Part shown: positions 8,924 to 31,274 of the stretch, one piece after another
Layout of the letters: each line of letters starts with the position of its first letter
How positions within the stretch are numbered: the first letter of the stretch is position 1
IMG/VR virus record: IMGVR_UViG_3300044274_000281
Strand: one strand, 5' to 3'
Length of the DNA stretch: 38,526 nucleotides
Source: a virus
Made by a program: the position numbers and the translations under genes
The notes under the pieces: generated by a model
Databases searched by the model: none
The model's input: the letters and a program-made list of their open reading frames with translations, nothing else
Told to the model about the DNA's origin: nothing

Positions 8924-8936
8924 TTTTATTACTTTG

Positions 8937-9009: not shown

Positions 9010-9064
9010 TGAGGTTTTAACTAACAACAATAAAATTTAGCCTTTCAAATAAACTACCTCCTGA

Positions 9065-9238: not shown

Positions 9239-9245
9239 CATTTCT

Positions 9246-9935: not shown

Positions 9936-9955
9936 AAAAAATTGTTTTTAAAATT

Positions 9956-14067: not shown

Positions 14068-14188
14068 TAACGTTATTTTTTTTCATTTCATTGCAAAAAA
14101 TTAAAAAAGGGTGTTATGCCCTAAGAAAAAAAATAGTACTTCGTAAGAAAAATTATATATTTACTAACTCATTCAATTTTTGATTATT

Positions 14189-15072: not shown

Positions 15073-15112
15073 TATAGTTGCAGTAATACAGTTATAGTTG
15101 TTAAACATAGTT
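15073..15112 (+). promoter_or_regulatory. Direct repeats TATAGTTG x2 (20-nt period) plus ATAGTT upstream of the first rightward gene
   Basis: TATAGTTG at 15073-15080 and 15093-15100; ATAGTT at 15107-15112. Each is one mismatch from TAnnTTTG. Confidence 0.3.
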
Positions 15113-15161
15113 AAACTCGTTTTAATAGATAATATCTATATTGCATTTATATCATTTGTAA

Positions 15162-15684: not shown

Positions 15685-16197
15685 ATGGAAATTTGTAATC
15701 AATCAGAGTTTTTAAAAAGAATCAAAAAGGTACATTTATTATTGCCTAGTGATATCATTTATTCGATTGCCGAAGTTTTGAATAATACTTCCATAGGAAT
15801 TACTACTTCAGAAAACACATTGACCGTAAAAGTACTTCCCGAAAATGTCAGTGTTAATTCCAGACAGACCACCGTTAAAGAAGGTGCGCGATGGAACCAT
15901 AAAATCACATTTGACGTGATACCACAGGAAGAATCTATACTTTCCATTTTAGACAAACTCTCCAACAAAAAGGTTGTGGTGGCTTTGGAGTCTACAGATT
16001 ATCGTGTATTTATATACGGAAATACAGATCAACCTCTTACCTATACGTATAAAGAAATCAACAGTAAAAATCAAGAAGGAAATATCGGATATCAAATAAG
16101 TGTATCTGGTGCAACTACGGTGCGACCACTGATAAGAACAATTAATGAATTTGACGGTAATCCTTTCTTAGCAAGTGTGATTGCAGGCTATTTATAG
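15685..16197 (+). CDS. Hypothetical protein (head-module position)
   Basis: 170-aa ORF. Confidence 0.7.
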   Translation: MEICNQSEFLKRIKKVHLLLPSDIIYSIAEVLNNTSIGITTSENTLTVKVLPENVSVNSRQTTVKEGARWNHKITFDVIPQEESILSILDKLSNKKVVVALESTDYRVFIYGNTDQPLTYTYKEINSKNQEGNIGYQISVSGATTVRPLIRTINEFDGNPFLASVIAGYL

Positions 16198-16208
16198 TGT
16201 CCTTTTTT
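16198..16208 (+). promoter_or_regulatory. TGTCC-T6 motif copy
   Basis: tgtcctttttt, 65 nt upstream of the ATG at 16263. Confidence 0.5.
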
Positions 16209-16262
16209 AGCCCTTTCAACAGGGGTAAAATTGTATCGTAGAAAATCTATAGATACAATTTT

Positions 16263-17594
16263 ATGAGCAGCAATATTGCTAATTTACATAGTTTATTAAG
16301 CAGCAAATGGATGATAACAGATCAATTTGCCAATGCTCTTATACCTCAATTATTGAGTATTCTTAATAAAGGAGAACTTCCTGAAAAACAATCTTCTAGT
16401 TCAGGAATTATTTTCATGAATACTTCCATGGAATTTTTTGATGAGGAAGAATACAATACAGCTACTGAGGAAGAAGAAGAAAAGCAAGAAGTAGTTGCAA
16501 TTCTACCAATTAAAGGTGCAATTACTAAGTATTCTCAATGGTGCGGACCAGCTGGTACTCGTGAAATGAAATCGAGAATGGAAAAATGGAAAGCCGACGA
16601 CAATATCGTTGGTATTTTATTTGACATAGACAGCGGTGGCGGACAAGTATCGGGCACAGGAGAATTTGCCAGATATGTCAAAGACTATCCTAAACCAACA
16701 TTGACTTACAGTGATGGTATGATTGCATCTGCAGCATATTACATTGCTTCTGCAACGGATGAAATTGTAATGAATAAGTATTCGGATGTTGTAGGTAGTA
16801 ATGGTACAATGTGTAAATATCTTATCCTCGATGGATACTATAAAAAACTTGGTGCAGAAGTAATAGAAGCTTATGCAACAAAATCTACAAAGAAAAACAA
16901 CACTAGTAGGGAAGCCAAAAAAGGGAATTTGAAACCTCTGATCAAAGAAGAGCTTGATCCTATTAATGAACAATATCTACAGGAAATTCAAGAGTACAGA
17001 CCTCAAGTAAATAGCGAAGTGCTGAACGGTCAACATTATGTTGACATGAGTATAGCTCAAGACAAAGGTTTGATTGATGCAATTGGAGACAAAAAATATG
17101 CGATTGACAGAATTTTTGAACTCGCAGATACAAACAAATCACAAAATCATAATAATCAGAACATGGCAGAAGAACAAAACAATTTTGAACAACTAGCTGC
17201 CACATTAGGTTTGGAAGATGGTCTTAAGCTGTCAACAAAACTTTTTGGTGGCAAAAAAGGAGTTTTTCTTAACGAAGCACAGTTACAAGCTTTAGAAAGC
17301 AAACTTGCTGATCAAGAGGAAAACAAAGCAGAAGACACTTCATTAAACAATGAAGCTGAAAACAAAGTAACAGCTTTGGAAAATGCAGTCACGGATGCAT
17401 TAAAAGTTGCCTCATTAGATGCAGCAGACTCTACAGAAGCATCTATCAAGTTACTTGGAGATACGGTTGCACAGTATGGATCGCAACCAGGAGAAACACC
17501 AACACAAACTGCATCAGATGGTGACAGATTCAATGATGAAGATGGAATCGTAAATTCTTCTGATGCTCATAATCAAATCTATAATAAAGTCTAA
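16263..17594 (+). CDS. S49 (SppA/ClpP-fold) prohead protease fused to a scaffold-like C-terminal region
   Basis: 443 aa. GILFDIDSGGGQVSG and SDGMIASAAYYIASATDEIVMN are S49 signatures. The C-terminal ~140 aa is Ala/Glu/Gln-rich and coiled-coil-like. Confidence 0.8.
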   Translation: MSSNIANLHSLLSSKWMITDQFANALIPQLLSILNKGELPEKQSSSSGIIFMNTSMEFFDEEEYNTATEEEEEKQEVVAILPIKGAITKYSQWCGPAGTREMKSRMEKWKADDNIVGILFDIDSGGGQVSGTGEFARYVKDYPKPTLTYSDGMIASAAYYIASATDEIVMNKYSDVVGSNGTMCKYLILDGYYKKLGAEVIEAYATKSTKKNNTSREAKKGNLKPLIKEELDPINEQYLQEIQEYRPQVNSEVLNGQHYVDMSIAQDKGLIDAIGDKKYAIDRIFELADTNKSQNHNNQNMAEEQNNFEQLAATLGLEDGLKLSTKLFGGKKGVFLNEAQLQALESKLADQEENKAEDTSLNNEAENKVTALENAVTDALKVASLDAADSTEASIKLLGDTVAQYGSQPGETPTQTASDGDRFNDEDGIVNSSDAHNQIYNKV

Positions 17595-17596
17595 AC

Positions 17597-18625
17597 ATGA
17601 GTGTAAATATTGATCAAATACTAAACGAAACAAAGCGATTTGTTAAGGACAATCCAAAAGTTCTTAATGGCGCTATTATGTCCAAAGAAGTTGAGTTGAA
17701 CAAGCATGCTAAACTTGTGGTTAAAATCAGAGGAGAGTATCCAACGGTAAACGCTGTTTTAGGACATGTTGTTCAAGGTTTTCAACCAAAATGGACAGAA
17801 ATGGGGAATGTTCAATTCCGTGGAAAGGTAAGTAAAGATTACCATCAAAAGGTAAACTTTGGTTTTACTCCCGCAGAAGTACTTGGTTCTTGGATTGAAC
17901 AGAAATATGATGAGGGCAAAGAAATTAAAGACAAATCAATTTCTCAGCATGTTTTGAAGACAATGCTTCCAGCAAAAATTATATCAGATGTAGATATCTT
18001 ATCAATGAATGGAATTTTTGATCCAGTACGTGCATTTGCTGAAAACCCTGAATTTGGATACTCAATGGATGGTTTGAATACAATTGTGAAAAATAATGTA
18101 ACAAACACAAACAATCCATACTTCAAGATTCCAATTGACACGGTAACTGATGATAACATTTTGGATGTTATCGAATCTTATGAAGAAGCAATTCCTTTGG
18201 ATTACGTCAAGTTGATTGACAAAATTTTCATTTCTCATAGAAATTATTTGAGAGCTAAGAAAAAGCACAAAGAACTCAATGGAGGTAACACTGATTTCAA
18301 AGCTGATGGATTTGCAATGACTCCTCTATTAGAAAAAAAATTAGTTGTTCTTACTGGGTTAGATGACAATACCATTCTTTCATCCGTTTCTGGAAACTTG
18401 ATCAGAATGGTTGACCTTATCCAAAATCCTGCAACAATTGTTGATGTTCAAAAGCAAGATTACAAGATCAAAATCTTTGGTGAGTTTACTCTAGGTTATG
18501 ATTTTGCCGTAAACGAACTCACTATTGTAGGTTCTAACCATGCTTCAATAACTGAGAGAGGTCTTGGAAATTCAGAACTCAATGAGTTGTACTATCCACG
18601 TGAATATACTCAGATAACCGCTTAA
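17597..18625 (+). CDS. Major capsid protein (candidate)
   Basis: 342 aa, immediately downstream of the protease/scaffold gene. Call rests on size and position; no motif was verified. Confidence 0.55.
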   Translation: MSVNIDQILNETKRFVKDNPKVLNGAIMSKEVELNKHAKLVVKIRGEYPTVNAVLGHVVQGFQPKWTEMGNVQFRGKVSKDYHQKVNFGFTPAEVLGSWIEQKYDEGKEIKDKSISQHVLKTMLPAKIISDVDILSMNGIFDPVRAFAENPEFGYSMDGLNTIVKNNVTNTNNPYFKIPIDTVTDDNILDVIESYEEAIPLDYVKLIDKIFISHRNYLRAKKKHKELNGGNTDFKADGFAMTPLLEKKLVVLTGLDDNTILSSVSGNLIRMVDLIQNPATIVDVQKQDYKIKIFGEFTLGYDFAVNELTIVGSNHASITERGLGNSELNELYYPREYTQITA

Positions 18626-18634
18626 GAGTAATCT

Positions 18635-19039
18635 ATGGAAAATTATAATGTAATAGGGAAATCCACAGAAGAACTGCAAGTAAAAGCGAAAGAACTGGGG
18701 ATTTCTGGATTTATGGAATTAGGCTATAAAGACCTGCAAAAAGCTATAACAGGTCATTATAGTGCAAAGGATAAAGAAAGTCAGCAAATACCACCAGAGG
18801 ATAATAAAGCTGACTCAGAAAATCAAACCGAAAATACGGAAACAGATACTTCAGTAGAGGCACCTGTATTATTCTATACAGATAGTAATTCTACAAAATG
18901 GGTATTTAAAAAAGATACTCCAGATGCTTTTCGATTTAACGGTTTAGTTAGGACTAAACAAGAGTGGCTTCAAGATGAAGATGCTATGGAAATGTTAGTC
19001 TATGGAAGATCAACTTATGTTCAAAAATTAAAAAAATAA
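18635..19039 (+). CDS. Hypothetical protein with Rho_N/HeH-like N-terminal motif
   Basis: 134 aa. STEELQVKAKELGISGFMELGYKDLQKAI. Confidence 0.7.
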   Translation: MENYNVIGKSTEELQVKAKELGISGFMELGYKDLQKAITGHYSAKDKESQQIPPEDNKADSENQTENTETDTSVEAPVLFYTDSNSTKWVFKKDTPDAFRFNGLVRTKQEWLQDEDAMEMLVYGRSTYVQKLKK

Positions 19040-19043
19040 TCTT

Positions 19044-19616
19044 ATGTCAACAAATTGTTTTGATAACGTTCCATTAGAGGATTTGACAATGTGTGTCAAT
19101 GAAGAATTGGTTGCTGGTACCTCAGAAACACAAGTTTTCGCAGCAGTGGCAGATCACATTGATGCCTTTCCAGCATTACCTGCATTGGGTGGTGATCCAA
19201 CCACTACAACTTTGGAAAGTTTAGCCACAATAGCTGCAGATATCACTTTTGTTGCTACAAAAGGTTTCTTCAAACTACAGGCGCAAACTGAGACAGGGGA
19301 AGTTAAAGATGAACTTGTAGGTAACAAGGGTAATAAGAAAGTGAAGAGTATGTACGAATTCTTCCTTCCAAATACCTCAAAGCGAAATATTGGTTTTATT
19401 CGCCAGTATATGAATGTGCCTTTAATATTCATAGTTACTGAGAAAACAGGACGTATGCGACTTATTGGTAGCAAACTAAATCCTGTTTATATGGATGATA
19501 CTTCTGGTACTACTGGTAAAGGACCAGAGGATGACAACGGGTGGCAAATATCTGTTTCAACCACATCAAGTAGTCCAGCGCCTGTTTACGAAGGTAATGT
19601 AGCAATGCACGCGTAA
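19044..19616 (+). CDS. Hypothetical structural protein
   Basis: 190-aa ORF in the head module. Confidence 0.7.
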   Translation: MSTNCFDNVPLEDLTMCVNEELVAGTSETQVFAAVADHIDAFPALPALGGDPTTTTLESLATIAADITFVATKGFFKLQAQTETGEVKDELVGNKGNKKVKSMYEFFLPNTSKRNIGFIRQYMNVPLIFIVTEKTGRMRLIGSKLNPVYMDDTSGTTGKGPEDDNGWQISVSTTSSSPAPVYEGNVAMHA

Positions 19617-19972
19617 TGAGTGAAGAGTTAAATAAAAAAATAATTGAAAGTATGACACCTCAAATGACGCATTTTGAGGTGATCGGGCATCCTAGGGTAT
19701 ACGTAACACCAAGATTAGGTATTGTGGATCTAAGGCTTGCGTTTCCAGAAGATAAAGCCCTTATATGTTATAAAGACATCAATTTTCCATATTTGAAACT
19801 AAAAGATGGTGCTGAAGAATTGTTTAAGAATGAAAAAGTAGACACAATCTTGAATTTAATTAATAAAGCGACTATCATTTCAGATATTGAGATTCTAGCA
19901 AAATCAAAACCCGAAAGTAAAAAGGTACAAGAACTGTTTCAAACACGTATTGCTGAATTGAAAAAAGCATAA
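19616..19972 (+). CDS. Hypothetical protein
   Basis: 118-aa ORF with a TAATG overlap to the upstream gene. Confidence 0.7.
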   Translation: MSEELNKKIIESMTPQMTHFEVIGHPRVYVTPRLGIVDLRLAFPEDKALICYKDINFPYLKLKDGAEELFKNEKVDTILNLINKATIISDIEILAKSKPESKKVQELFQTRIAELKKA

Positions 19973-20005
19973 TTTATTATCCATCTTTATTTTTATTTTA
20001 TTTCT

Positions 20006-20037
20006 AAAAGGCATGTTTTCAGTAGCATGCCTTTTTT
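20006..20037 (+). terminator. Strong intrinsic terminator after the capsid gene block
   Basis: AAAAGGCATG - 10-nt loop - CATGCCTTTT, then TT. Confidence 0.8.
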
Positions 20038-20075
20038 AGTGATAACACTGACAGAATGAAGCTTTCTAGCTTAAC

Positions 20076-20087
20076 TGTCCTTTTTTT
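20076..20087 (+). promoter_or_regulatory. TGTCC-T7 motif copy
   Basis: The TGTCC starts exactly 40 nt upstream of the ATG at 20116. The near-consensus -7-like box CATTTTTG (20104-20111) starts 28 nt downstream of the TGTCC. Confidence 0.5.
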
Positions 20088-20115
20088 AAAAACCTTCACT
20101 TTCCATTTTTGAACT

Positions 20116-20865
20116 ATGGATATAGTTCAGTGGTTCAAAGATTCTAGAGATTACCAAACAGGTGTTCGTATTTATGCTATGCTTCCAAAAGCTAGCAAAA
20201 ATATACTTACCCGTTTACAGCGTGGAGAGAATCCTAGAAATCGAGCTACTTTGTTATATGAGCTTAATAAGCTAAAAAAATCAGCTTTAAATGTTAGTAT
20301 TCCCATTAATTCAGTTGAAAATATTCAATCGACTCAACCACCAATTCCTCCACCAGATCCAATAAAAAAATCTTTAACTCAGGATAATGGAAAAGTCACC
20401 ATGGCAATGCTGCCTGATCCTATCCTTAGAAAACGATTCGTGCAAAAGAACCAGGCATTTTATAAGCGATGGGAATTAAAGCATCAACTTAATGGACTTG
20501 CGCCAAGGCAAGAAGCTGAAGCACTAGAGTTGATCACTGAAATAATGAGACTTACCAAGCTTATTGATCAGATTTGGACTGAAATAGATTACTACATGGC
20601 ACATAAAAAGCTGCTTCCATCTAGTTCCAAAGACTATACTTTGCTATCTCCAATGGCGAAAGTTCGAGAGCGTCAACTTCTTTATTCCAGAAAGAGTAAG
20701 CGAGAGAAAACAGTTAATAATTACCTGTTAAAATTAAAATCTACAACAGATACAAAAGCGCGTGCTAACCTCCAGAGAAAAATATCCGAAAAGCAAAAGG
20801 TAATCACTCAAATGGATATAGATATAAAAAAATTAAATGAATTGATAAATGCCTCAGATAGTTAA
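20116..20865 (+). CDS. Hypothetical protein
   Basis: 249-aa ORF with a basic, helical C-terminal half. Confidence 0.7.
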   Translation: MDIVQWFKDSRDYQTGVRIYAMLPKASKNILTRLQRGENPRNRATLLYELNKLKKSALNVSIPINSVENIQSTQPPIPPPDPIKKSLTQDNGKVTMAMLPDPILRKRFVQKNQAFYKRWELKHQLNGLAPRQEAEALELITEIMRLTKLIDQIWTEIDYYMAHKKLLPSSSKDYTLLSPMAKVRERQLLYSRKSKREKTVNNYLLKLKSTTDTKARANLQRKISEKQKVITQMDIDIKKLNELINASDS

Positions 20866-21439
20866 GTTCAATAAAGATTCTTCGCTTCAGAAAATACGAG
20901 CTTCTTTTTTAGATGATACAATTGCGTTGAGTCCCAAGGAAGAAGATACGAAAAACAAATGTCGATACATTTTTACGTTGCGCCTAAAGAATAAGTACTC
21001 AAGGTCGCAAGCTATTGAGATGTTTGTAAAGGAGTACTCCACTGACAAGAAGAAGGTGAGTCTTGCAACTGCTTATCGTATTTATAATAAAGCGACGTTT
21101 ATCTATGGAGAACTGGATGAAACTGATGCCCGTGCCGAGCGCATGATCCTTCGTGAACATTACTTTAATCTTTATCAATTAGCACTGAAAGACAAGGAAA
21201 TTGAGCTTGCTAAAAAGATACTGGATAGCTACAAGGAATTATTTGATTTCAATGTCGATGAGACTGACATAGATCGTGGTAAGCTCAAAGCGCATGAATA
21301 TGTTATTAAGGTACCTCGCGATGTGCGTAAGATTTTGAGAGATCAAATACTAAACAAGGGAGTAGTTGACTTTAATTCGTATCCAAACATAGAAGATGTT
21401 TATTTTAAGGAGGTGAATGATGGAGAAGAAGATAGTTAA
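20849..21439 (+). CDS. Small terminase subunit (positional candidate)
   Basis: 196 aa, immediately upstream of the large terminase gene and overlapping it. No motif verified. Confidence 0.4.
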   Translation: MPQIVKFNKDSSLQKIRASFLDDTIALSPKEEDTKNKCRYIFTLRLKNKYSRSQAIEMFVKEYSTDKKKVSLATAYRIYNKATFIYGELDETDARAERMILREHYFNLYQLALKDKEIELAKKILDSYKELFDFNVDETDIDRGKLKAHEYVIKVPRDVRKILRDQILNKGVVDFNSYPNIEDVYFKEVNDGEEDS

Positions 21440-22970
21440 CCTAAATGCACCTCAATATTCAGTTGTAGAGGCACTGAATTTATTTATAAAATATATTTTT
21501 CTGGAATGGGCTCGTGGAACAGGGAAATCTACAATACTAGGATGGATTGTTAAAGAAGCTGCAATACAACTACCAAGGGCAACAGGGATATTGGTCGGAC
21601 AAACATATATTCAAATGCTCTCTAGAACATTACCTTCTACCAAGGAAGGTTTAGAGATGTTCGGCTATTATGAAGGTATTGATTATGTTGTCGGTAAATG
21701 TGGAAAGAAACTAGGCTTTGAGATGCCTTATCAAAGTCCATCCAAGTGGGATAATGTCATCCATTTTCGCAATGGCTTTATTTTAGTGTTGGTTTCTTTA
21801 GATAATCCTAACAGCGGTCGTGGATTGAACTCATATATAGTTATAGGGGATGAGGCAGCTTTACTAGATCCGGAACGACTGTTTAACAATGTGCAGACTA
21901 CCAACAGGGCAAAAAAAGTGTGGTTTGAAAAGTCACCACTTCTCAATGCTGAAATATTCGCCTCTTCCACTCCAATGACAAAAAAAGGAAAGTGGTTCAC
22001 CTCCTATGATAAACTTATACAAGATGCCAGAAACGGTATATCAAACAAAATTAAAAATCCAAATGAGTGGTTCTTCTCCAAAGCAAACGCATTTTCTAAT
22101 GCTCATAACTTAACAAGAGGATGGTTCGATCGAATGAAGGTCAATGCACCAAGCCTTACGCATTACAATGCGGAAATATTAAACATACGACCAAAGTTTG
22201 TACTAGAGAGCTTCTATCCATCGCTAGATCCAGCAGTACATTATTACGAGAACTTTAATAATACCTATTTAGAATCATTGGGAGTCAATGCCAGTAAGAG
22301 TTCATTCAACTGTTTACAAGACTCTGATTTAAAGAAAAACAAACCTCTCATTGTGGAATTAGACTGGGGAGTATTCAACTCGATGGTGATCTCACAGGAC
22401 GATGGAGAGGAGTGGAAGTTCTTGAAATCATTGTGGGTAAAGAATCCAAAGATTATAGACGACCTTATTGATGAACAGTTTGCTCCTTATTACTCTTCTC
22501 ATGGAAAGAAAGTAATACACCTGTATTACGATCGTAATGGTAACAATCGTCAAGCCAACAGTAGTATAACACTAGCACAACAAGCCATCGCTGCATTCAA
22601 GCGTAACGGGTGGAAGGTGATAGTTAAGACTCCTCCCACACTAGATCCACCACACAATGAGAAGTTCATCGTAGTTAACTTCCTTTTAAAGTTTGGTGGT
22701 ACAAGGGGACTCCCTAAGATGAGAATCAATATGCACAATGCGTATGATCTTACCGTATCGTTGGAGGATGCTCCAGCTAAAGAAGGTAACAACGGGATTC
22801 AAAAGGATAAGAGTTCCGAGCGATCAAAGACCACACCACAGGAGCATGCCACCCACCTGTCTGATGCGTTCGACCTTGCACCTTACTGGCGATACAAGGA
22901 TAAGGTGATGAAGCTCATTACTAACAAACAAGATCGTTGGTCTATTCCACTCTTCGGTGGAAGAAAATGA
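21417..22970 (+). CDS. terL: Terminase large subunit
   Basis: 517 aa. Walker A-like EWARGTGKSTILG and Walker B YIVIGDEAALL. Size and position are typical. Confidence 0.85.
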   Translation: MMEKKIVNLNAPQYSVVEALNLFIKYIFLEWARGTGKSTILGWIVKEAAIQLPRATGILVGQTYIQMLSRTLPSTKEGLEMFGYYEGIDYVVGKCGKKLGFEMPYQSPSKWDNVIHFRNGFILVLVSLDNPNSGRGLNSYIVIGDEAALLDPERLFNNVQTTNRAKKVWFEKSPLLNAEIFASSTPMTKKGKWFTSYDKLIQDARNGISNKIKNPNEWFFSKANAFSNAHNLTRGWFDRMKVNAPSLTHYNAEILNIRPKFVLESFYPSLDPAVHYYENFNNTYLESLGVNASKSSFNCLQDSDLKKNKPLIVELDWGVFNSMVISQDDGEEWKFLKSLWVKNPKIIDDLIDEQFAPYYSSHGKKVIHLYYDRNGNNRQANSSITLAQQAIAAFKRNGWKVIVKTPPTLDPPHNEKFIVVNFLLKFGGTRGLPKMRINMHNAYDLTVSLEDAPAKEGNNGIQKDKSSERSKTTPQEHATHLSDAFDLAPYWRYKDKVMKLITNKQDRWSIPLFGGRK

Positions 22971-23161
22971 CTTCTGACAACCCAAAATTCATATATCGGG
23001 CAATTTCAATAAAGGAAAGTGAAGAAATCCGTTAGGCTACGGCGGGGTGATCGTGCAGACTTTGAGAAAGTTAAAAGAATTTTTAAACTCAAAACATTGT
23101 AAATCAGAATTTTATATTTTAAAAAATGAGAAAGCCAATTGCAAAAACGCTCAAAGTTAGG

Positions 23162-23175
23162 TGTCCTTTTTTTTT
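23162..23175 (+). promoter_or_regulatory. TGTCC-T9 motif copy
   Basis: The TGTCC starts exactly 40 nt upstream of the ATG at 23202. Confidence 0.5.
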
Positions 23176-23201
23176 GGTTAGTAGAAATTGACCTTCGTAG
23201 T

Positions 23202-23549
23202 ATGGAAAATTCAATATTTCTCAATTCTGTTTTAGAGAAAATGCGCGAAACTGATGCCAATGGTAATCTGGTTGCATTTGACATTGAATGGCGCACATGG
23301 AATGAGCGTAATAAAATGGGCGGAAAACTTATGGTTTCCAAGCAAGCAAAGCTTTGTATGGTAACAGATAAGAAAAAAAATATTGTTGATGTACTTCGCA
23401 CTGAAACAAGTGAACTGCCACGCAATAGAAGAAATCCGAATCATTACAAAAACAGAACACGAAATATTGATCGCTGTGATGGATCACATCCGGTAAAAAT
23501 TCACATTGATTTAATAACCAAATTTAACGGCATGCAAGTCGTGTATTAA
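23202..23549 (+). CDS. Hypothetical protein
   Basis: ATG at 23202 (MENSIFLNSVLEKMRE...). The track start at 23139 is a TTG that reads through the T-run motif. Confidence 0.6.
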   Translation: MENSIFLNSVLEKMRETDANGNLVAFDIEWRTWNERNKMGGKLMVSKQAKLCMVTDKKKNIVDVLRTETSELPRNRRNPNHYKNRTRNIDRCDGSHPVKIHIDLITKFNGMQVVY

Positions 23550-23550
23550 T

Positions 23551-24891
23551 ATGGCAGGTGTTACAAGTACAAAAGGAGTTTATTTTGGTAGAAGTTCAGT
23601 TATTTTCTCTGGCAAAACTTCTGCTCCTGTCGCACCAACGACAGTAAAAGTTAAAGAAGAATCGGGAAAGTTTGAAAAAGGAAAGATTGCTCCTTGGGGA
23701 AGCGACAACCGATATCCACAAAAATTCTTAGATCAATTAAAACTTAATGGCGCGGCTTCAGGAGGTTTGTCTTTATTGAAAGCAATCCACTACGGAAACG
23801 GAGTAACCTTTTTCAAGAATGAAAAAGATGAAAACGGAAAGCGCACCAAACAAGTCCAATTCTTAGAGGACTATGAAGAAATATTTTCGTTTTGGAAGCG
23901 TAACAAAATGCCTAAGTTTTTCACTTCCACTATATCAGATTTGGAAACTTTCAGTATGGCGTTTCCTGAGTACATTATTAGTAAGGACTTTCAAAAAATA
24001 ACGCATGTTCGTCGCAAAAAAACAGCGTGGTGTCGGCGAGAACTCATAAATCCTAGTACGGGTATTTCCGAGCAAGTGTATTTGAACGCTAATTGGGAAG
24101 GCACTGAGACCAATAACGAATATACATCTAAGATCCATTGCATGGATCCTTTCTGGACTGCGGATGAAATAAGAGAATATTGCAAGAAAAAACGAATCTA
24201 CAAGTTTGTCATTCCTACACATTATACGATGACAGATGAGACGTATTATAATAAGACCAGCTGGCACGCAGTCTATCACAACGGCTGGATGGAAGTGTCG
24301 AATTCCATACCAAAGTATAAGAAATATCTTTTTGAAAATCAGATCAACATCAAATATGTGGTGTATATCTCTGACCAATATTTTGCTGACGAATATGGCG
24401 ATGATTGGGAAGAGTACGATGTAGCTAAAAAGAAAAAGATAAAAGAAGAATTAATCACGGCTATTGATGAACATTTATCAGGCAATGAATCTGCAGGAAG
24501 GACTTTGTTTTCTAAGAAAATCAGAGATGCCAATGGAGATTTTATCAAAGCCATTGAAATAGAACCAATCGATAATTTATTAAAGGATGGTTCTTTCCTA
24601 CCGGATGCCTCGGCAGCTAACTCTGAAATCAATTATTCGCAAGGCGTGGATTCCACACTTGTTGGATCAGGTACACCAGGAGGAAACATGGGAGCAGGTT
24701 CGGGAAGTGATAAACGCATCGCTTTTGTAATTCTTTCTGCACTTTTTAAGACAAAGCGCGAAACTACACTGGAAATATGGGAGTTCTTAAAAGAATTCAA
24801 CGGATGGGATGAGGCACTACAAGCCACTTTTGAAAATATGGTATTAACGACGTTGGATAAAAATCCGACTGGTCAAACAAACGGAATCTAA
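23551..24891 (+). CDS. Portal protein (candidate)
   Basis: 446 aa, downstream of terL. Call rests on size and position. Confidence 0.5.
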   Translation: MAGVTSTKGVYFGRSSVIFSGKTSAPVAPTTVKVKEESGKFEKGKIAPWGSDNRYPQKFLDQLKLNGAASGGLSLLKAIHYGNGVTFFKNEKDENGKRTKQVQFLEDYEEIFSFWKRNKMPKFFTSTISDLETFSMAFPEYIISKDFQKITHVRRKKTAWCRRELINPSTGISEQVYLNANWEGTETNNEYTSKIHCMDPFWTADEIREYCKKKRIYKFVIPTHYTMTDETYYNKTSWHAVYHNGWMEVSNSIPKYKKYLFENQINIKYVVYISDQYFADEYGDDWEEYDVAKKKKIKEELITAIDEHLSGNESAGRTLFSKKIRDANGDFIKAIEIEPIDNLLKDGSFLPDASAANSEINYSQGVDSTLVGSGTPGGNMGAGSGSDKRIAFVILSALFKTKRETTLEIWEFLKEFNGWDEALQATFENMVLTTLDKNPTGQTNGI

Positions 24892-25838
24892 TGGCTTTTT
24901 TAATCAATTCAACAGAAGAAATTCAAAATCATGTAACAGTTTTATCCTCGTTTGACTTTGACAGGGCAAAGCCTTACATAAGAAAAGCAGAGCGTAACTA
25001 CATTATTCCACTTATAAGTGAAGAAGAATATCAATACTTTATCGATAATCAAAGTGACGATTTATCTTCTAAAAAGAAAGTCCGTGAGCTGATAGAAGAA
25101 GCCACGGTTAATTTAGCTTTTCACTTAGGGTTCTCAGTATTGAAAGTACATATTGGTAACTATGGTATTACCGATACAGATGTTGATGAAGCCAAACAGA
25201 GTAGTTGGGCAGACAAACGAGATTTACAACGAACTTTCATTCGTGATGGAAATAAGGCATTGGATGATGCTTTAAAGACAATGGAAAAGTACTTTGATGA
25301 ATTTCCGCATTGGAGAGCATCAAATAGTTTCACTGTGTTAAACGAACATTTTAATCGTCATACTGATGATTTCCAACTGTGGTTTAACATTCATAACAGT
25401 CGCCAAACATTCTTGGCACTGCGCCCAACCATACGAGAGGTACATGAAAAGTACTTCTTACCACTTTTAGGTGTTGCCACAATCAATCTTATCAAAACCA
25501 GAACTACCAATACGGTAATTACTCGCGCTTTGGAATTATGCCAAAAGGCAGAAGCAGCTCACACGATCGCTGAGATCGCAAAAACAGGAACTTTTGAAGT
25601 TACGGAAACAGGTTTTTTACTCAGATGGGAAACCTTGCCATGGGAGAAAGCATACAAGGATGTTGATTTGAAGAAACTCGATCGTCTTTCCAAGTCAAAA
25701 GAAGCTGCTGGAGAAGAATATTTAAAAAAGCTTAAAAAGCTAATTGAAGATAATATTACGCTGTTTCCTGATTATACAATTCAGACGAAAACTTCAGGAA
25801 TTCAGATCATAAAAACCAAATCAGGTCTCGCTATTTAG
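24891..25838 (+). CDS. Hypothetical virion-module protein
   Basis: 315-aa ORF with a 1-nt overlap to the portal candidate. Confidence 0.7.
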   Translation: MAFLINSTEEIQNHVTVLSSFDFDRAKPYIRKAERNYIIPLISEEEYQYFIDNQSDDLSSKKKVRELIEEATVNLAFHLGFSVLKVHIGNYGITDTDVDEAKQSSWADKRDLQRTFIRDGNKALDDALKTMEKYFDEFPHWRASNSFTVLNEHFNRHTDDFQLWFNIHNSRQTFLALRPTIREVHEKYFLPLLGVATINLIKTRTTNTVITRALELCQKAEAAHTIAEIAKTGTFEVTETGFLLRWETLPWEKAYKDVDLKKLDRLSKSKEAAGEEYLKKLKKLIEDNITLFPDYTIQTKTSGIQIIKTKSGLAI

Positions 25839-25839
25839 C

Positions 25840-25852
25840 TGTCCTTTTTTTT
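25840..25852 (+). promoter_or_regulatory. TGTCC-T8 motif copy
   Basis: The TGTCC starts exactly 40 nt upstream of the ATG at 25880. The exact TAnnTTTG box TAATTTTG (25868-25875) starts 28 nt downstream of the TGTCC. Confidence 0.55.
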
Positions 25853-25879
25853 ACATAGTCTGTAAAATAATTTTGAATT

Positions 25880-27625
25880 ATGAGTTTAGATCCAATAGAT
25901 TATCCGACAAAAGTTAATTTAAACATTGTAGTTGATCAGCAAAGACAAGCTACAGCAGAAGACTTCAATCAGATAAAACTAAAGTATAATACTTTATTGT
26001 CAGATTATAAGATTCAGAAAGGAGTTAATTTAGCCAATGAAAAAGAGATTGAAATTCAATCTTTATCGAGTAATGGTAAAGTGAATGCAATTGTAAAAGA
26101 TGGAGGTCAAATTAAAATCCATCGACACTTAGGAGCTGATAATTGGCTAGAAATTACACTAGGCAATTCGGGTTCTTTTGATACAGATGTCTTATCTGCG
26201 TACAAAGTAGTAAGTCAACGAGTATACAAAATGTTTGGTTATATATTAGCGAATGATGCTTCTCAATCAGGTACATGGCAGTCATGGACATCCAATTCTG
26301 CTACACAATATGTAGGTCATAAGTCTCTAAGAAGTTTTAATCCTGGTGATCAACTTTCTTTTACTAAAACTTTCGGAGGAAATCTCAGTTTAGTTTATGT
26401 AGCCGACACAGATGGAGGAATGGTTGAAATATCAATCAATGGTGAAACACCAATAATTGTTGATACATATTCAGAAACATCCAATTTATATAATCAAAAA
26501 CAGAATATATATACTGATTTACCTTATGGAACGCATACAGTAACTATTACTGTTTTGTCTGATAGTAATTCGAATAGCTCAGGAACTCAGGTTTGGTTCA
26601 ATGCGCTAGAAGTATCAGGAGATATATTCTTAGATGACCCATTAGTTTATCCTAAAAAGTGGGAATCGGGAACTGCATATTTACAGTTTGATGAAGTTAT
26701 TGGACAGGATGGAAATATATACATAGCCCAACAAGATGGAACTTCAGGAAATACAATTCCTGCTCATAGTTCTGGTTCAGTTAGTGATGGTGTAATTGAT
26801 TGGCTATATTCTTCTGCATCCTCATTTGTTTCAGAAAGTTTTCGTATACAGGCTATTGGTAGCGAGTTAGAGTATGCTTATGAGGTAGTCCCTTTGGATG
26901 AAGACATAGTTGAGGATATAGGAGGCAATCTTCATGGAAATGAGTACATAGATACTATGTCATATTATGTAGATGGAAAAAAAATAGAATTGGTAGAAGG
27001 AGTATACTATAAAGGTAAATCGATAACAGTCGAGCAAAACCTAGTTCAATTCTATGGTGATTATCAAAATAGGTTAGAAATAGCTAATGTTAAGCAGATA
27101 CACGCTTTTTCCCTTGAATGTATGAGCGTTAGATATTCAATTGATCTCATTTATCAATGTAATATCGGTTACTACTATACCGCAATGTTTCCATTTTTAG
27201 CATACGATGGGGCAAATCAAAGAATCCAATTTAAGGAGTTATCTTCTCCTCAAGCATCCGTTAAATTATTAGATTATGATGGAGTCTCAGGAAATCCTAT
27301 ACTTGGAAAAGAAAAAGATTTTATTGCGTATGCAGTAGGAAATGCTTTTGTGCCACGAGGCTCTGGTGGAGTCCCTTCAACTGAACCAGCAAAAGAGAAA
27401 GTAACAATCGCTTTAAGAGTGAATAGTGAAACTATGGATAACTACACTGAAAGTGAAATGAATTGTGGTTTAGCAGTCAATACTAACGGTAATAGCTTTA
27501 CAGGGTACTCTTCAATTTTATCTAAGATTTACTTTCAACGTATACGATCTGGTCAATCTGTTGTTTTTCAACCAGGAGATAAGCTACAAGGATTTAACAA
27601 ATACTATATAAAAATCCATAAATAA
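25880..27625 (+). CDS. Large structural protein with a CBM5/12-like carbohydrate-binding motif
   Basis: 581 aa. KKWESGTAYLQFDEVIGQDGNIYIAQQDGTSGNTIPAHSSGSVSDGVIDWLY. Confidence 0.6.
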   Translation: MSLDPIDYPTKVNLNIVVDQQRQATAEDFNQIKLKYNTLLSDYKIQKGVNLANEKEIEIQSLSSNGKVNAIVKDGGQIKIHRHLGADNWLEITLGNSGSFDTDVLSAYKVVSQRVYKMFGYILANDASQSGTWQSWTSNSATQYVGHKSLRSFNPGDQLSFTKTFGGNLSLVYVADTDGGMVEISINGETPIIVDTYSETSNLYNQKQNIYTDLPYGTHTVTITVLSDSNSNSSGTQVWFNALEVSGDIFLDDPLVYPKKWESGTAYLQFDEVIGQDGNIYIAQQDGTSGNTIPAHSSGSVSDGVIDWLYSSASSFVSESFRIQAIGSELEYAYEVVPLDEDIVEDIGGNLHGNEYIDTMSYYVDGKKIELVEGVYYKGKSITVEQNLVQFYGDYQNRLEIANVKQIHAFSLECMSVRYSIDLIYQCNIGYYYTAMFPFLAYDGANQRIQFKELSSPQASVKLLDYDGVSGNPILGKEKDFIAYAVGNAFVPRGSGGVPSTEPAKEKVTIALRVNSETMDNYTESEMNCGLAVNTNGNSFTGYSSILSKIYFQRIRSGQSVVFQPGDKLQGFNKYYIKIHK

Positions 27626-27646
27626 TGAATAAAATATTTTTGAAAA

Positions 27647-27967
27647 ATGACATTACTAATATCATACATAACTAATACAACGATTGGTAAATGGTTGTAT
27701 GGTCTAGTCTTTACAGTTTCAACCTACGACCTAGTAAAACAATCTACTATGAATGAAACATCTTTTTTTGAGGAGCTTTTAAAAAATGTTCCTGCGCAAG
27801 TAGTATATGTATTAGGAATAATTTATGGAATTGCAATTGTCTTGACTAAAATTTCCGATTTATGGAAAAGGCACGAATTAAATAAGCTTCAAGTAAAAAA
27901 AGAAAGAGAACATCTCGAACAAGAAGAGATTAATACCGAAATCCAACGAAAAGAAATTCAAAAATGA
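27647..27967 (+). CDS. Holin candidate
   Basis: 106 aa. Hydrophobic segments (WLYGLVFTVSTY; VVYVLGIIYGIAIVLTKI) followed by a highly charged C-terminus. ATGA overlap with the next gene. Confidence 0.5.
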   Translation: MTLLISYITNTTIGKWLYGLVFTVSTYDLVKQSTMNETSFFEELLKNVPAQVVYVLGIIYGIAIVLTKISDLWKRHELNKLQVKKEREHLEQEEINTEIQRKEIQK

Positions 27968-28392
27968 AAAAGGTAGTACTACAACGTCTATGGCAAGATA
28001 AGAACCAAGCTACAGGAGTACTAACTGTTGTAGATAGTATAGGACAACCAATTTTTATTTGCTTGTGTATTGAAAGAGGAGATCGTAACAATAAACGAAA
28101 CGTCAGCAATGTTCCTGCGGGAATATATCCTTTAGTCCTAGAATACTCTCCTAGATTTAAACGTGATCTTTTTGAATTAAAAGAAGTACCAAATAGGAGT
28201 GAGTGCAAAATACACGCATCAAATTTTTGGACACAACTAAATGGATGCATTGCACCAGGACTAAAGTTGAAAGATATGAACCGTGATGGATACTATGATG
28301 TCACTAACAGTAAAAATTCACTTGAAGAATTCCATACTGCTTTAAATGGAATTAAGAAGACAACTATTCAAATAATAGATCCAGCAAAATGA
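27964..28392 (+). CDS. DUF5675-like protein; candidate non-canonical endolysin
   Basis: 142 aa. NVSNVPAGIYPLVLEYSPRFKRDLFELKEVPNRSECKIHASNFWTQLNGCIAPG matches my recollection of the DUF5675 pattern (IP.G.Y...VP.R..I.IH..N....L.GCIAP). Flanked by holin-like and spanin-like genes. Confidence 0.45.
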   Translation: MKKVVLQRLWQDKNQATGVLTVVDSIGQPIFICLCIERGDRNNKRNVSNVPAGIYPLVLEYSPRFKRDLFELKEVPNRSECKIHASNFWTQLNGCIAPGLKLKDMNRDGYYDVTNSKNSLEEFHTALNGIKKTTIQIIDPAK

Positions 28393-28907
28393 AATTAGCT
28401 TTAAAAATCATTCTACTTTCTATTTTAGTTTATTCTTGTTCGGTCAAAAAAGACTCAGCAAAGAAAAAAATCAAATCAGTTGAAGCAAAAGATGTGAATA
28501 CTGAAATAGTGAGAAGCATTCAGGAAAAAAGGAAAGGAGGTAAAATCACCACTGAAATCATTCCAGTTGAAAAACGTGAACGCGATGAGAATGGAGAACT
28601 TAAAGAATTGATCGAAACCATAAAAGATGGTGGTTTAACAAAAACAGTCATTTACCGTCCTGATGGAAAAGTCGATGTTGAATGTACAGCAGATGAAATT
28701 TATCGTTTGATTAAAGAAAAAATCAAACAACAGGATAATTCCATTGTCAAAGAAGAAGTCAAAGAAAAACAAAAGCAAAAAGAAGAAAAGTTTAATCCTG
28801 CTCCATTCATTTTTGGATTAATTGGTTTAGCAATTATTCTATTGGTTGGATTTTTCATAATGAGGCGTGTTATAGAGAAATCCTTAGTAAAAAAGCTCAA
28901 CAGCTAA
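28389..28907 (+). CDS. Unimolecular-spanin-like protein (N-terminal lipoprotein signal + C-terminal TM)
   Basis: 172 aa. MKLALKIILLSILVYSC lipobox at the N-terminus and PFIFGLIGLAIILLVGFFIM at the C-terminus. ATGA overlap with the upstream gene. Confidence 0.5.
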   Translation: MKLALKIILLSILVYSCSVKKDSAKKKIKSVEAKDVNTEIVRSIQEKRKGGKITTEIIPVEKRERDENGELKELIETIKDGGLTKTVIYRPDGKVDVECTADEIYRLIKEKIKQQDNSIVKEEVKEKQKQKEEKFNPAPFIFGLIGLAIILLVGFFIMRRVIEKSLVKKLNS

Positions 28908-29683
28908 TGCGCTTAAACTTCGACATACCAACCTCATGGAATGAACTTACTAATTGGCAATTGAAGCGAATTGCAAGTATTTTTTTTTCGGATAAGGATA
29001 CTAAAAAAGTCACTTTCCTTTTGGTAGTATATTTATTCATGCCTCGTTTATCATTGTGGAATATACTGAAACTATTCTTTTTGTTCATGCAAGTTCCATA
29101 TTCGGCTTTAAAAGAGTACACTAAATTTCTTTATGAAGAAAACGATCTGACTCGGTTTCCAAAAAAACTACGTTCTCGTTTTTCTTATCTACATGGTCCT
29201 GCAGATAGACTTTCAAATGTTACAATTGAAGAGTATGCCTATGCTGATTTATTTTATTACAATTGGGCGAAGACAAAGTCAACTACTGATTTAGACCGAT
29301 TGGTTTCAGTCTTGTACAGACCGAAAGCAAATGAAACAGAAGAATTGACAGATTTAAGACAAGCTTTCGATAAGGATAAACTCAGGTTTCATGCCAAATC
29401 AGTCGAACGTTTATCAACGCTAACCAAGATTACAATCATGATGGCATTTCAAGGTTGTCGTGACAATATAATCAAACGATACACAAACGTCTATAAAAAA
29501 GGAAAATCAAAATCAGGATACGCGCCATTTACAAAAATTATTGCTTCTATGGCCAGAGGCGAAAGTCAACCTTTTGGAGATTATTACAAAACCAAACAAG
29601 CGAATGTCTTTGACTTCATGGAAATGCTTGATGAAGAGATCAAAGAACAACGGCTAAAACTTAAAAAGACAAAAAAGAAATGA
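28907..29683 (+). CDS. Hypothetical protein
   Basis: 258-aa ORF. Confidence 0.7.
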   Translation: MRLNFDIPTSWNELTNWQLKRIASIFFSDKDTKKVTFLLVVYLFMPRLSLWNILKLFFLFMQVPYSALKEYTKFLYEENDLTRFPKKLRSRFSYLHGPADRLSNVTIEEYAYADLFYYNWAKTKSTTDLDRLVSVLYRPKANETEELTDLRQAFDKDKLRFHAKSVERLSTLTKITIMMAFQGCRDNIIKRYTNVYKKGKSKSGYAPFTKIIASMARGESQPFGDYYKTKQANVFDFMEMLDEEIKEQRLKLKKTKKK

Positions 29684-30189
29684 GAAATATAACATACGAG
29701 ATTCTTATGGACTATTTTAAGGACTTGGCTAAAAACCATGCCGATATTAATAGCTTTGTTGGCTATTCATCGCTTGATTTCCAAACACAAATAAATACTG
29801 TCAAAGGATTAGATGATTTTATTTTAGTACTCTACAATTATGAAGCTAAGTTAGAAGGTAATAATCAACGTACTATTTCACAGCGATCGATAAGTTTTGC
29901 AATCTTAAAAAAAGTGAAAGAACTTCATGATTTTAATGCTCAATACAAAGCAATCGCAGAGTGTGAAGTGATTGGTTTAGAAGTTTTATCAAGAGTAAAT
30001 TATGATAGTAAGCTAGATGAAGTGAAATGGTTGTATAATAATTTTGTAAAAGAAAGTGTTAATTTCAAAGAAGTCGGTCTGAAAACAGAAAGTGGTTTAT
30101 TCGGGATGGAATTTTTCTTCGATATAAAAACGCCAGAACCACTTACAATCCTTGCAGAAAAATGGGATGATATAGAATCAGTATGTTAG
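29680..30189 (+). CDS. Hypothetical protein (tail-module position)
   Basis: 169-aa ORF with a 4-nt overlap to the upstream gene. Confidence 0.7.
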   Translation: MRNITYEILMDYFKDLAKNHADINSFVGYSSLDFQTQINTVKGLDDFILVLYNYEAKLEGNNQRTISQRSISFAILKKVKELHDFNAQYKAIAECEVIGLEVLSRVNYDSKLDEVKWLYNNFVKESVNFKEVGLKTESGLFGMEFFFDIKTPEPLTILAEKWDDIESVC

Positions 30190-30195
30190 GTTTTT

Positions 30196-30216
30196 AATTA
30201 CGGTAAAACCGTAATT
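30196..30216. promoter_or_regulatory. Fifth copy of the TTACGG/CCGTAA palindrome
   Basis: AATTACGGT-AAA-ACCGTAATT, a perfect 9-bp palindrome. It could also act as a hairpin terminator, but the T-run is 9 nt away. Confidence 0.5.
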
Positions 30217-30271
30217 ATTATACGTTTTTTATTCATATATTTCACATGTAGAATAAAAAATTTCCCTTAAC

Positions 30272-30514
30272 ATGCCTGATATAATAGATTACAAAACGGA
30301 AGTGAAGCGACTTATACAAGAAAACTATGAGCCTGCTGATATGTTGACAAAAGAAGTCGAGAAAACTACAAAAGATTTAGTGGAAGGATTTAGTAATATT
30401 ATGTCTTCCAAACAAGTAGATGAACACGTAGTATATGAAGCTTTAATTGAACTCGGTTATACACCAAAAGAAAAAGAACCTTTATCTTTTAGTTGGTTTT
30501 TCAAAAGGAAATAA
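30272..30514 (+). CDS. Hypothetical protein
   Basis: 80-aa ORF. Confidence 0.6.
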   Translation: MPDIIDYKTEVKRLIQENYEPADMLTKEVEKTTKDLVEGFSNIMSSKQVDEHVVYEALIELGYTPKEKEPLSFSWFFKRK

Positions 30515-30515
30515 C

Positions 30516-30815
30516 TTATAAATATTCCCATGAACCGTTATCAACATATATCATTTCATTATCTAAAGTCATAATAATATCCTTCTCTTTTCTCCTTTTT
30601 CCTAAAATTATAGCACCATAAGTTCTTTTAAAGTTTTTGTTTGGTGGTTCTGATTCTACATGCACAGGAAAATTACTTTCAAAATGCTTTTTTATAGAAC
30701 TAAAATGTTTTATATATGAAAGAGGTAGATTCAATTCAAAATTAGTAAAATTGGAATCCATCCATATTTTAATCTGCCTTTCTATTTCCTTTACTGTGTA
30801 ATCATTTTTTTGCAT
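30516..30815 (-). CDS. Hypothetical protein on the opposite strand (moron candidate)
   Basis: 99-aa ORF, the only minus-strand gene within the 15-38 kb late region. Confidence 0.6.
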   Translation of the reverse strand: MQKNDYTVKEIERQIKIWMDSNFTNFELNLPLSYIKHFSSIKKHFESNFPVHVESEPPNKNFKRTYGAIILGKRRKEKDIIMTLDNEMIYVDNGSWEYL

Positions 30816-30859
30816 AAATAAAATTAAGCAAATTCTTTTAATCTAATTCCAAACTTCCT

Positions 30860-30872
30860 TGTCCTTTTTTTT
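30860..30872 (+). promoter_or_regulatory. TGTCC-T8 motif copy
   Basis: 52 nt upstream of the ATG at 30912. Confidence 0.5.
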
Positions 30873-30911
30873 AGGATAAGCTTCGCGCATCTTGCCATAA
30901 ATTTCAGTTAC

Positions 30912-31274
30912 ATGGCAGGTGATACTACGAATTTAGAGAAACAGGCTGGACAGGCAGCAGCCAGAAATCTTGGGAGAGTTGTTCGAAAAACACTCAAACA
31001 GCACTTTTCTAAAGACACTGGTCGTATGTTCCGAACTAATGCAACTGCAAAGATGCGACACGGTAGTTTGGATAGAATAGAAATCAGATCTCCTTACTAC
31101 TCATTTATCCAGCATTACGGTTTTTCTCGAAGCTACAAAAGTGGAAAAACACATCAATCATCTGGTACCGATCATTTCAATGAAGCACTCAACAATACTT
31201 CAATTATTGAAGAACTAGCTGATAAAATTGCCGCAATCCGAATTGATAATGTAACATCAATAATCAAGTTCTAA
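30912..31274 (+). CDS. Small virion protein, possibly HK97 gp10-like tail-completion protein
   Basis: 120 aa, directly upstream of the tape measure gene. Weak resemblance only (DTGRMFRT...IEIRSPYYSFIQHYG). Confidence 0.35.
   Translation: MAGDTTNLEKQAGQAAARNLGRVVRKTLKQHFSKDTGRMFRTNATAKMRHGSLDRIEIRSPYYSFIQHYGFSRSYKSGKTHQSSGTDHFNEALNNTSIIEELADKIAAIRIDNVTSIIKF

Follow-up and report, generated by a model that had tools for sequence, protein, structure and literature searches.

A TGTC(C/T)TTT element at a fixed distance from a host-type -7 box as a probable signal of late promoters in temperate phages of Bacteroidota

In this work, a conserved upstream element, TGTCC followed by a run of T, was analysed in the IMG/VR virus record IMGVR_UViG_3300044274_000281, a complete 38.5-kb contig of a Flavobacteriaceae prophage-like element, whose whole stretch of 38,526 nucleotides (nt) is called the window here. 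The 11-mer TGTCCTTTTTT was found five times, at 16198, 20076, 23162, 25840, and 30860, in each case on the plus strand, in an intergenic gap, and ahead of a gene block (Table 1), as an earlier note on this DNA had described and as an exact search confirmed. With a probability of about three in four, the five copies are the upstream specificity elements of five late promoters, i.e., promoters of virion genes. That the element takes the place of the host -33 box, which the note had proposed, is favoured by its rigid spacing to a host-type -7 box, by its conservation, and by its confinement to the strand and the region of the virion genes. We infer the promoter activity, the late timing, the dependence on a factor, and the identity of that factor from the sequence.

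In dinucleotide-preserving shuffles of the window, 0.12 copies of the 11-mer were expected against the five seen, and none of 100 shuffles reached five. The enrichment beyond chance claimed previously is therefore real, and the earlier figure of 0.02 expected copies was too low. The distance from the first T of the motif (T1) to the ATG is exactly 40 nt at 20076/20116, 23162/23202, and 25840/25880, just as had been noted, and it is 65 nt for copy 1 and 52 nt for copy 5. Preceding stop codons lie anywhere between 0 and about 190 nt away, whereas the -7 box keeps a constant distance, and copy 5 lies in a divergent gap after a minus-strand open reading frame (ORF, 30516-30815). The core conserved across the family is TGTC(C/T)TTT, and the long T-run is a local feature of the window, so the run of 6-9 T does not stand as a conserved feature. 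A similar upstream context had also been pointed out; a weak T-richness at -5..-3 was recovered, and 'TTA-N2' as such was not. Two more TGTCCT copies, overlooked by the note, lie inside a 16-nt direct repeat, ATGGTCAAATTGTCCT.

Megablast of the late region against GenBank phages gave no match, and relatives were reached via TerL in viral, genome, and metagenome collections (loci labelled L001 onward). A position weight matrix was made from 79 unique instances aligned on TGTCCT, from the TerL-related loci and the window. It contains a second conserved block at a fixed distance, with A30 in 74 of the 79 instances, T33 in 69, T34 in 77, T35 in 53, and G36 in 57. The -7 element of Flavobacterium johnsoniae was reported as T-12 A-11 n n T-8 T-7 T-6 G-5, with the start 4-5 nt after the G (PMC6847099), and A30, T33, T34, and G36 correspond to A-11, T-8, T-7, and G-5 of the Flavobacterium element. 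When G36 is set as -5, TGTCCT falls at -40..-35, a T-rich stretch at -34..-31, an A-rich patch at about -28, and the +1 at position 41. This position coincides with the A of the ATG when the T1-to-ATG distance is 40 nt, as in 27 of 81 unique instances, and the mRNAs are therefore predicted to be leaderless in these cases. The boxes of copies 2, 3, and 4 occupy motif positions 29-36 and end 4 nt ahead of the ATG, so the box that the note had placed 28 nt past TGTCC in two of these three cases is indeed seen, as CATTTTTG, GACCTTCG, and TAATTTTG, respectively. The geometry puts the predicted +1 of these three copies on the A of the ATG, which agrees with the near-leaderless mRNAs suggested before. 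The CTTCG of the copy 3 box is kept in L002 and L003.

The fixed distance was recovered in two other ways. Of the strict A..TTTG boxes, 91 begin at motif position 30, and at most two at any other offset from 20 to 44. By selecting gene starts without reference to the motif (A..TTTG-N4-ATG), nGTCYT was found at -40..-35 in 51 of 77 unique gene starts (TGTCCT in 30, TGTCTT in 18, and AGTCCT in 3), and in none at the other tested offsets. The downstream block thus has the form of the -7 element of Bacteroidota sigma-A, nAnnTTTG at a fixed offset, the start site itself being predicted. T-12 is not conserved and occurs at background frequency (26 of 79 instances). A -33 TTTG or TTG 19-21 nt ahead of the -7 box was not found, as motif positions 4-10 read CCTTTTT without a G and with TGTCCT directly upstream. 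Likewise, there is no -10 of the extracytoplasmic function (ECF) type 16-18 nt past TGTCCT, and motif positions 18-28 carry at most 0.17 bits over the 79 instances.

The earlier note had made its claim depend on conservation in relatives, and the motif was found there at orthologous sites. Over 76 TerL-related loci and the window, the gene strand carries TGTCCT[AT]T[TC][TC] 94 times and the opposite strand 4 times. Orthologous promoters stand ahead of the protease gene, the block of the 249-amino-acid (aa) protein, TerS and TerL, the small pre-portal gene, and the neck/tape-measure block, and the element is kept at these sites although the flanks diverge. The copy ahead of the protease gene is also present in L001, L002, L004, L005, L009, L011, L012, Leef_1, Ingeline, and the Porphyromonas gingivalis phage. 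At the pre-portal promoter, the orthologue of copy 3, the T1-to-ATG distance is 40 nt in nearly all relatives, with GC contents up to 62%. Orthologues of copy 5 with CATCTTGC boxes were found in L002, L003, and Leef_1 (at 10520). The Polaribacter phage Leef_1 contains six TGTCCTTTTT copies, all on the coding strand and in the virion region, and its early region (17.4-30 kb) contains none. The element is further present in Cellulophaga phage Ingeline, P. gingivalis phage026a (50% GC), a human-faecal phage, and 'Microcystis phage Mea-Yong924-1'. Variants are TGTCCTATTTT in a Leptobacterium prophage, TGTCTTTT in the gut-type subgroup, where the ATG distance is still 40 nt, and CATGTCTTAAA in Flavobacterium phage 6H; in some relatives, the T-run is swapped for ATTTT or AAA. 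A scan of viral contigs with the pattern TGTCCTTTT-N20-ANNTTTG-N4-ATG returned at least 119 contigs of 31-62% GC, compared with 20 for a control with a permuted pentamer. Almost all matches open real ORFs, and within the matched loci the full bipartite pattern occurs 157 times on the seed strand and never on the opposite one.

We hypothesize that TGTC(C/T)TTT at -40..-33 covers or abuts the site of the host -33 TTTG and is followed by an A-rich stretch near -28 and by a host-type -7 element, nAnnTTTG at -12..-5, without the usual T at -12. The -7 element would be read by the host RNA polymerase with the primary Bacteroidota sigma factor, and a phage-induced factor would recognise TGTCYTTT or make the polymerase recognise it. 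The virion genes would be silent in the lysogen, and five separate units would then come on, namely protease/capsid, terminase, portal, the 581-aa block, and tail, three of which would start on the A of the ATG and give leaderless mRNAs. Since the -33 TTTG is absent and T-12 is at background, the core promoter should be weak, from which we infer a factor. Constitutive virion promoters would moreover be incompatible with lysogeny, and together with the confinement of the element to virion genes this again points to a factor. Because the host-type -7 box is kept, the host primary sigma is favoured over a replacement sigma. As expected for promoters of the activator or sigma-appropriation kind, a phage-specific box is found at a fixed distance from a host-type element, in many copies, and ahead of one gene class. 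Pfam and PHROGs searches of nearly all window ORFs gave no sigma factor, MotA/AsiA, Ogr, Mor/C-type activator, or phage RNA polymerase, and no Sigma70_r2 or r4 domain was present in the window ORFs tested.

The best candidate for the factor is the 170-aa protein of 15162-15674, called gp39-like here, which the note had also listed as a candidate. Outside the virion module, the window and Leef_1 share two proteins only, this one (gp39) and that of 15685-16197 (gp40). By iteration of hidden Markov models (HMM), the gp39-like family was extended to 41 ORFs. Every checked TerL-related locus that extends beyond the protease gene on its upstream side has a member, as does each of the seven complete phage genomes fetched, and the member always lies one or two genes before the protease promoter. 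Loci retrieved via the gp39-like protein alone show the same synteny and the same promoters, and in L223, L226, and L227 the first TGTCCT promoter begins directly after the gp39-like stop codon. Coding-strand TGTCC was found at 26 of 39 unique gp39-like 3' junctions, compared with 10% of random 180-nt windows, often as a direct or inverted pair. The two copies of ATGGTCAAATTGTCCT at this place in the window may act as additional TGTCC sites; alternatively, they could provide 15685-16197 with a weak promoter (TGTCCT at 15643, 42 nt to the ATG).

The gp39-like gene has a -7-like box of its own, in a promoter without TGTCC. Upstream of it, the window contains a direct repeat (Table 1), and relatives contain tandem 7-8-nt repeats at the same place (TGTGGAAC, TGTTGAAC, TGTTGGAC, or TGTTGGTA, two or three times). 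The tandem repeats stand 45-95 nt ahead of the gp39-like gene and are followed by the -7-like box (L001, L005, L011, L012, L040, L047, L185, L218 at ~9990-10006, and L226/L227 at ~9920-9945). They are likely a site for an earlier regulator of the gp39-like gene, and their placement suggests a regulatory cascade. In Pfam and PHROG the family is unannotated; clustering at 50% identity divides it into about 1,770 clusters. The AlphaFold model is confident, with a predicted local distance difference test (pLDDT) of 83; a fold search with it gave no PDB match and, in BFVD, its own Leef_1 orthologue only, and a profile search of PDB sequences returned nothing. The most conserved part is a C-terminal helix-loop-helix (...GITEDDINFESLYREYGRKKK) with an invariant R137 and a Lys-rich tail. 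The case for gp39-like as the best candidate factor for the TGTCCTTT-type element is circumstantial. In a bolder proposal, to which we give somewhat less than even odds, gp39-like would stand for a phage transcription factor of a new class, one by which the unusual primary-sigma RNA polymerase of Bacteroidota is directed to TGTCYTTT(-40)/-7 promoters, through DNA binding of the helix-loop-helix or through sigma appropriation. It would act as a phylum-wide late switch producing leaderless mRNAs, itself controlled through the TGTGGAAC-type repeats in a three-tier cascade.

Other proteins were considered for this role and rejected. The 'gp40-like' protein of 15685-16197 is a paralogue of the head-module protein 19044-19616; HMM iteration from one recruits the other family across loci. 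In L223, L226, and L227, a separate TGTCCT promoter precedes the gp40-like gene. The protein is therefore probably structural and made late, and its homology search gave two matches only. The LuxR/GerE-type regulators of Leef_1, laban6-1, and L225 were dismissed as a universal factor, as no protein of this type is encoded in the window. Because of its signal peptide and its location in the tail region in Flavobacterium phages 6H and laban6-1, the DUF4468 'TBP-like' protein (14180-14746) was dismissed as a DNA binder.

Several points weigh against late promoters switched by a phage factor. Copies 1 and 5 are not leaderless. Host genes may use the motif too, as the collection scan covered viral contigs, and no description of the motif was found in the searchable literature. 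The gp39-like protein has no recognisable DNA-binding or sigma-like domain in Pfam, PHROG, or PDB, and since its gene is linked to the conserved head module, finding it together with the motif is not an independent observation. Furthermore, the DNA core is almost unchanged while the gp39-like family diverges to 10-25% identity. Reading by a conserved host component would explain such a core no less well than direct binding by gp39-like, and the core is equally compatible with gp39-like redirecting a conserved host surface. On inspection, motif variants showed no interpretable co-variation with the conserved gp39-like helix.

The alternative that best survives, although we consider it unlikely, keeps the same promoter and assigns the reading of TGTCYTTT to a component of the host, whether region 4 of its primary sigma, an alternative factor, or a transcription factor that is conserved, without a phage DNA-binding protein; the timing would then have another source, such as loss of the repressor or genome copy number. 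The core is near-invariant over hosts of 31-62% GC and several Bacteroidota orders, although phage proteins diverge strongly, the -7 box and the A-rich -28 region are host-type, and the window yielded neither a sigma nor a known activator domain, all of which such a component would account for. However, an unaided housekeeping polymerase would express virion genes in lysogens, and a palindrome usable as an operator is present at only one or two of the five promoters. The motif is also absent from the early regions of complete genomes, a single conserved phage gene has TGTCC sites clustered at its 3' end, and the promoter analysis of Flavobacterium reports no such element (PMC6847099).

It is much less probable that the copies are a transcription stop or an RNA-level signal, i.e., a sequence-specific terminator or pause, or an RNA processing site between the late blocks. 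A conserved pentamer with a U-run resembles the class II signal of T7 RNA polymerase, reportedly ATCTGTT and a U-run, copies 1 and 4 begin 0-1 nt past a stop codon, and copy 2 can form a GACAG/CUGUC hairpin. However, folding of the 60 nt ending in each copy gave z-scores of 0.17, -2.88, 0.00, 0.32, and 0.40 for copies 1-5, so a weak stem is present at the 20076 copy (z = -2.9) and absent from the other four, and a terminator scan for a G+C-rich hairpin with a T-run listed none of the five. This agrees with the note, which had found a complementary arm at this copy alone and had ruled out generic terminators. The spacing is rigid to the -7 box and the ATG and not to the upstream stops, the ORF before copy 5 is divergently oriented, relatives have ATTTT or AAA in place of the T-run, and a phage RNA polymerase was not found in the window. 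Moreover, a canonical terminator already ends the protease/capsid unit upstream of copy 2 (Table 1), and in many relatives a canonical hairpin-plus-T terminator ends directly before TGTCC. Slightly less probable still is a DNA-level site (packaging, replication, recombination, or methylation) that is polar and intergenic by chance: some DNA-metabolism sites are so, and a separate conserved non-coding block exists after TerL, but a site of this kind would not need a constant 22-nt spacer before a -7 box, or a constant 40 nt before the ATG, in front of non-homologous genes, in 5-7 copies per genome that each precede a gene block.

The protease promoter carries an additional structure, a perfect 12-nt inverted repeat that spans the -7 box, the predicted start, and the A of the ATG (Table 1). 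Palindromes of different sequence were found at the same place in L002 (~410-450), L009, L218 (~11034-11068), L225 (~11000-11030), and L226 (~11068-11100), and they always overlap the -7 box or the predicted start of this promoter. The repeat could be an operator or a terminator of upstream read-through. Transcripts that start inside it lack the left arm, so read-through could be stopped while RNA initiated at the promoter would be unaffected. At the TerS promoters of relatives, ATTGC(A)-N-(T)GCAAT palindromes are likewise placed. The non-coding block after TerL lies at ~22997-23085 (TTCATATATCG ... GGAAAGTGAAGA ... TTAGGG) and is conserved in L001-L004 and L011; an RNA fold is unsupported, no Rfam match was found, and the block may act at the DNA level, for example in packaging. 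A second conserved stretch, 'TGAGAAA', stands about 35 nt before TGTCC. In L219 (MZ447863.1, 'Microcystis phage Mea-Yong924-1'), five ACACGC-TGTCCT-T(T/A)T copies occur at 13088, 17597, 19632, 23769, and 28689, most of them followed by a Bacteroidota-type -7-like box, and a gp39-like gene is at 8977-9450. The promoter grammar of this phage suggests a Bacteroidota host rather than Microcystis.

The remaining features of the window are given in Table 1. The partial tRNA at the left end stands beside a tyrosine integrase, which is consistent with integration into a tRNA gene and with a contig that starts at the attachment site. The DUF4468 protein is likely a moron or a lysogenic-conversion lipoprotein.

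Table 1. Positions of the promoter elements, the candidate factor, and other features in the 38,526-nt window.
Feature	Position	Strand	Details
Upstream element, copy 1	16198..16208	+	TGTCCTTTTTT; adjoins TAG stop of 15685-16197; precedes S49 head protease gene (ATG 16263)
Upstream element, copy 2	20076..20087	+	precedes 249-aa gene leading to TerS and TerL
Upstream element, copy 3	23162..23175	+	precedes 115-aa gene ahead of portal gene
Upstream element, copy 4	25840..25852	+	begins 1 nt past adaptor gene stop; precedes 581-aa gene
Upstream element, copy 5	30860..30872	+	precedes neck, tape-measure, and tail block (ATG 30912)
-7 box, copy 1	16226..16233	+	TAAAATTG; fixed offset 29-36; predicted start ~16238; predicted leader ~25 nt
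-7 box, copy 2	20104..20111	+	CATTTTTG; predicted start 20116 = A of ATG (leaderless)
-7 box, copy 3	23190..23197	+	GACCTTCG; predicted start 23202 = A of ATG
-7 box, copy 4	25868..25875	+	TAATTTTG, perfect TAnnTTTG; predicted start 25880 = A of ATG
-7 box, copy 5	30888..30895	+	CATCTTGC, subclass with TTG one nt earlier; predicted start ~30899-30900; predicted leader ~12 nt
Candidate late-gene factor, gp39-like, 170 aa	15162..15674	+	synteny; TGTCC clustering at the gene
Two direct copies of ATGGTCAAATTGTCCT	15633-15648, 15655-15670	+	22 nt apart; 3' end of gp39-like gene
Direct repeat GTTAAAC-ATA-GTTAAAC	15100..15116	+	46 nt upstream of gp39-like ATG
gp40-like protein, 170 aa	15685..16197	+	paralogue of head-module protein 19044-19616
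Perfect 12-nt inverted repeat TAAAATTGTATC / GATACAATTTTA	16226..16263		z = -6.7; spans -7 box, predicted start, and A of ATG
Canonical intrinsic terminator	20010..20037	+	GGCATG...CATGCC + T6; z = -5.0; ends protease/capsid unit, upstream of copy 2
Partial tRNA	1-45	+	Rfam model positions 28-71; left end
Tyrosine integrase	297-1520	+	
Early/accessory block	2165-2800, 3750-4544, 4550-5197, 5295-6353	-	SieB superinfection exclusion, PAPS-reductase-like, serine resolvase, NA37 nucleoid-associated protein
Phage-borne tRNA-Met (CAT)	8936-9009	-	between early genes 7105-8889 and 9246-9935
Rfam DUF805b RNA motif	10908-10940	-	37.3 bits (gathering 35.6 bits); intergenic gap of early region
Helix-turn-helix (HTH) repressor-like gene	12258-12701		
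DUF4468 (TBP-like fold) protein	14180-14746	+	signal peptide; between early and late blocks
S49 protease	16263-17594	+	
Capsid-like protein	17597-18625	+	
TerL	21417-22970	+	
Portal, adaptor	23551-24891, 24891-25838	+	homology to annotated Leef_1 proteins
Neck, tape measure	30912-31274, 31274-34708	+	homology to annotated Leef_1 proteins

Bacteroidota have an atypical transcription, in which the primary sigma is divergent, promoters are of the -33/-7 type, and Shine-Dalgarno sequences are not used; to our knowledge, almost nothing is known about the timing of gene expression in their temperate phages. The late promoters proposed here would mean that one rigid promoter grammar is common to phages of marine Flavobacteriaceae, of P. 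gingivalis, and of the human gut, which could be tested in isolates (Leef_1, Ingeline). It would also provide a sequence signature for annotating late operons and start codons, leaderless genes included, in Bacteroidota viromes. Moreover, one uncharacterised protein family is indicated as the likely switch, and the promoters are possible tightly off, inducible parts for the engineering of Bacteroides and Flavobacterium.

By comparing these promoters with known systems, both likenesses and differences become apparent. The sigma-ABfr promoters of Bacteroidota are reportedly composed of a -33 TTTG and a -7 TAnnTTTG (Bayley 2000, Chen 2007, Baez 2019). The phage promoters have the -7 element of such housekeeping promoters at the same distance from the predicted start (A-11, T-8, T-7, T-6, G-5), an A/T-rich stretch near -28, and no Shine-Dalgarno sequence, but the -33 TTTG is absent, TGTC(C/T)TTT stands at -40..-33, and T-12 is unconserved. 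In F. johnsoniae, leaders are longer than 10 nt in 87% of probable-promoter transcripts (PMC6847099, Baez 2019), whereas a third of the instances here have the start codon at the predicted +1. The predicted start on the A of the AUG is shared with leaderless phage mRNAs such as lambda cI from PRM; here, in contrast, leaderlessness, as predicted from the geometry, is conserved phylum-wide in orthologous late genes (the 115-aa pre-portal gene and the 249-aa gene). Phage sigma factors (SPO1 gp28, gp33/34, ECF-like) similarly have a phage-specific upstream hexamer that defines a temporal class, but they bring their own -10, and the box used here is the -7 box of the host primary sigma. With P2 Ogr and P4 Delta (TGT-N12-ACA at ~-55) and Mu C and Mor (-35), the present system has in common that several late operons share an upstream element and that the activator is expected to be a small phage protein whose gene directly precedes the late genes. 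On the other hand, the sites of Ogr, C, and Mor are dyad-symmetric and dimer-bound, whereas TGTCYTTT is asymmetric and abuts the -33 position, and no Ogr zinc-finger or Mor/C domain was found by Pfam in the window. Activator-type phage late promoters are thus known as a kind, and the combination of TGTC(C/T)TTT with the -7 element in Bacteroidota phages appears undescribed in the searchable literature. The closest functional analogy, in the way of working only, would be the T4 middle promoters, in which a MotA box at -30 is combined with the sigma-70 -10 and used through AsiA/MotA. They differ in the sequence and position of the box (-40..-33 here, about -30 in T4) and in the genes served, which here are virion genes of temperate siphophages and not middle genes, and in the window no MotA/AsiA homologue was detected and the candidate has no similar known fold. 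In both cases, however, a host downstream element and an asymmetric phage box would stand at a fixed distance, in many copies, and would imply dependence on a small phage protein.

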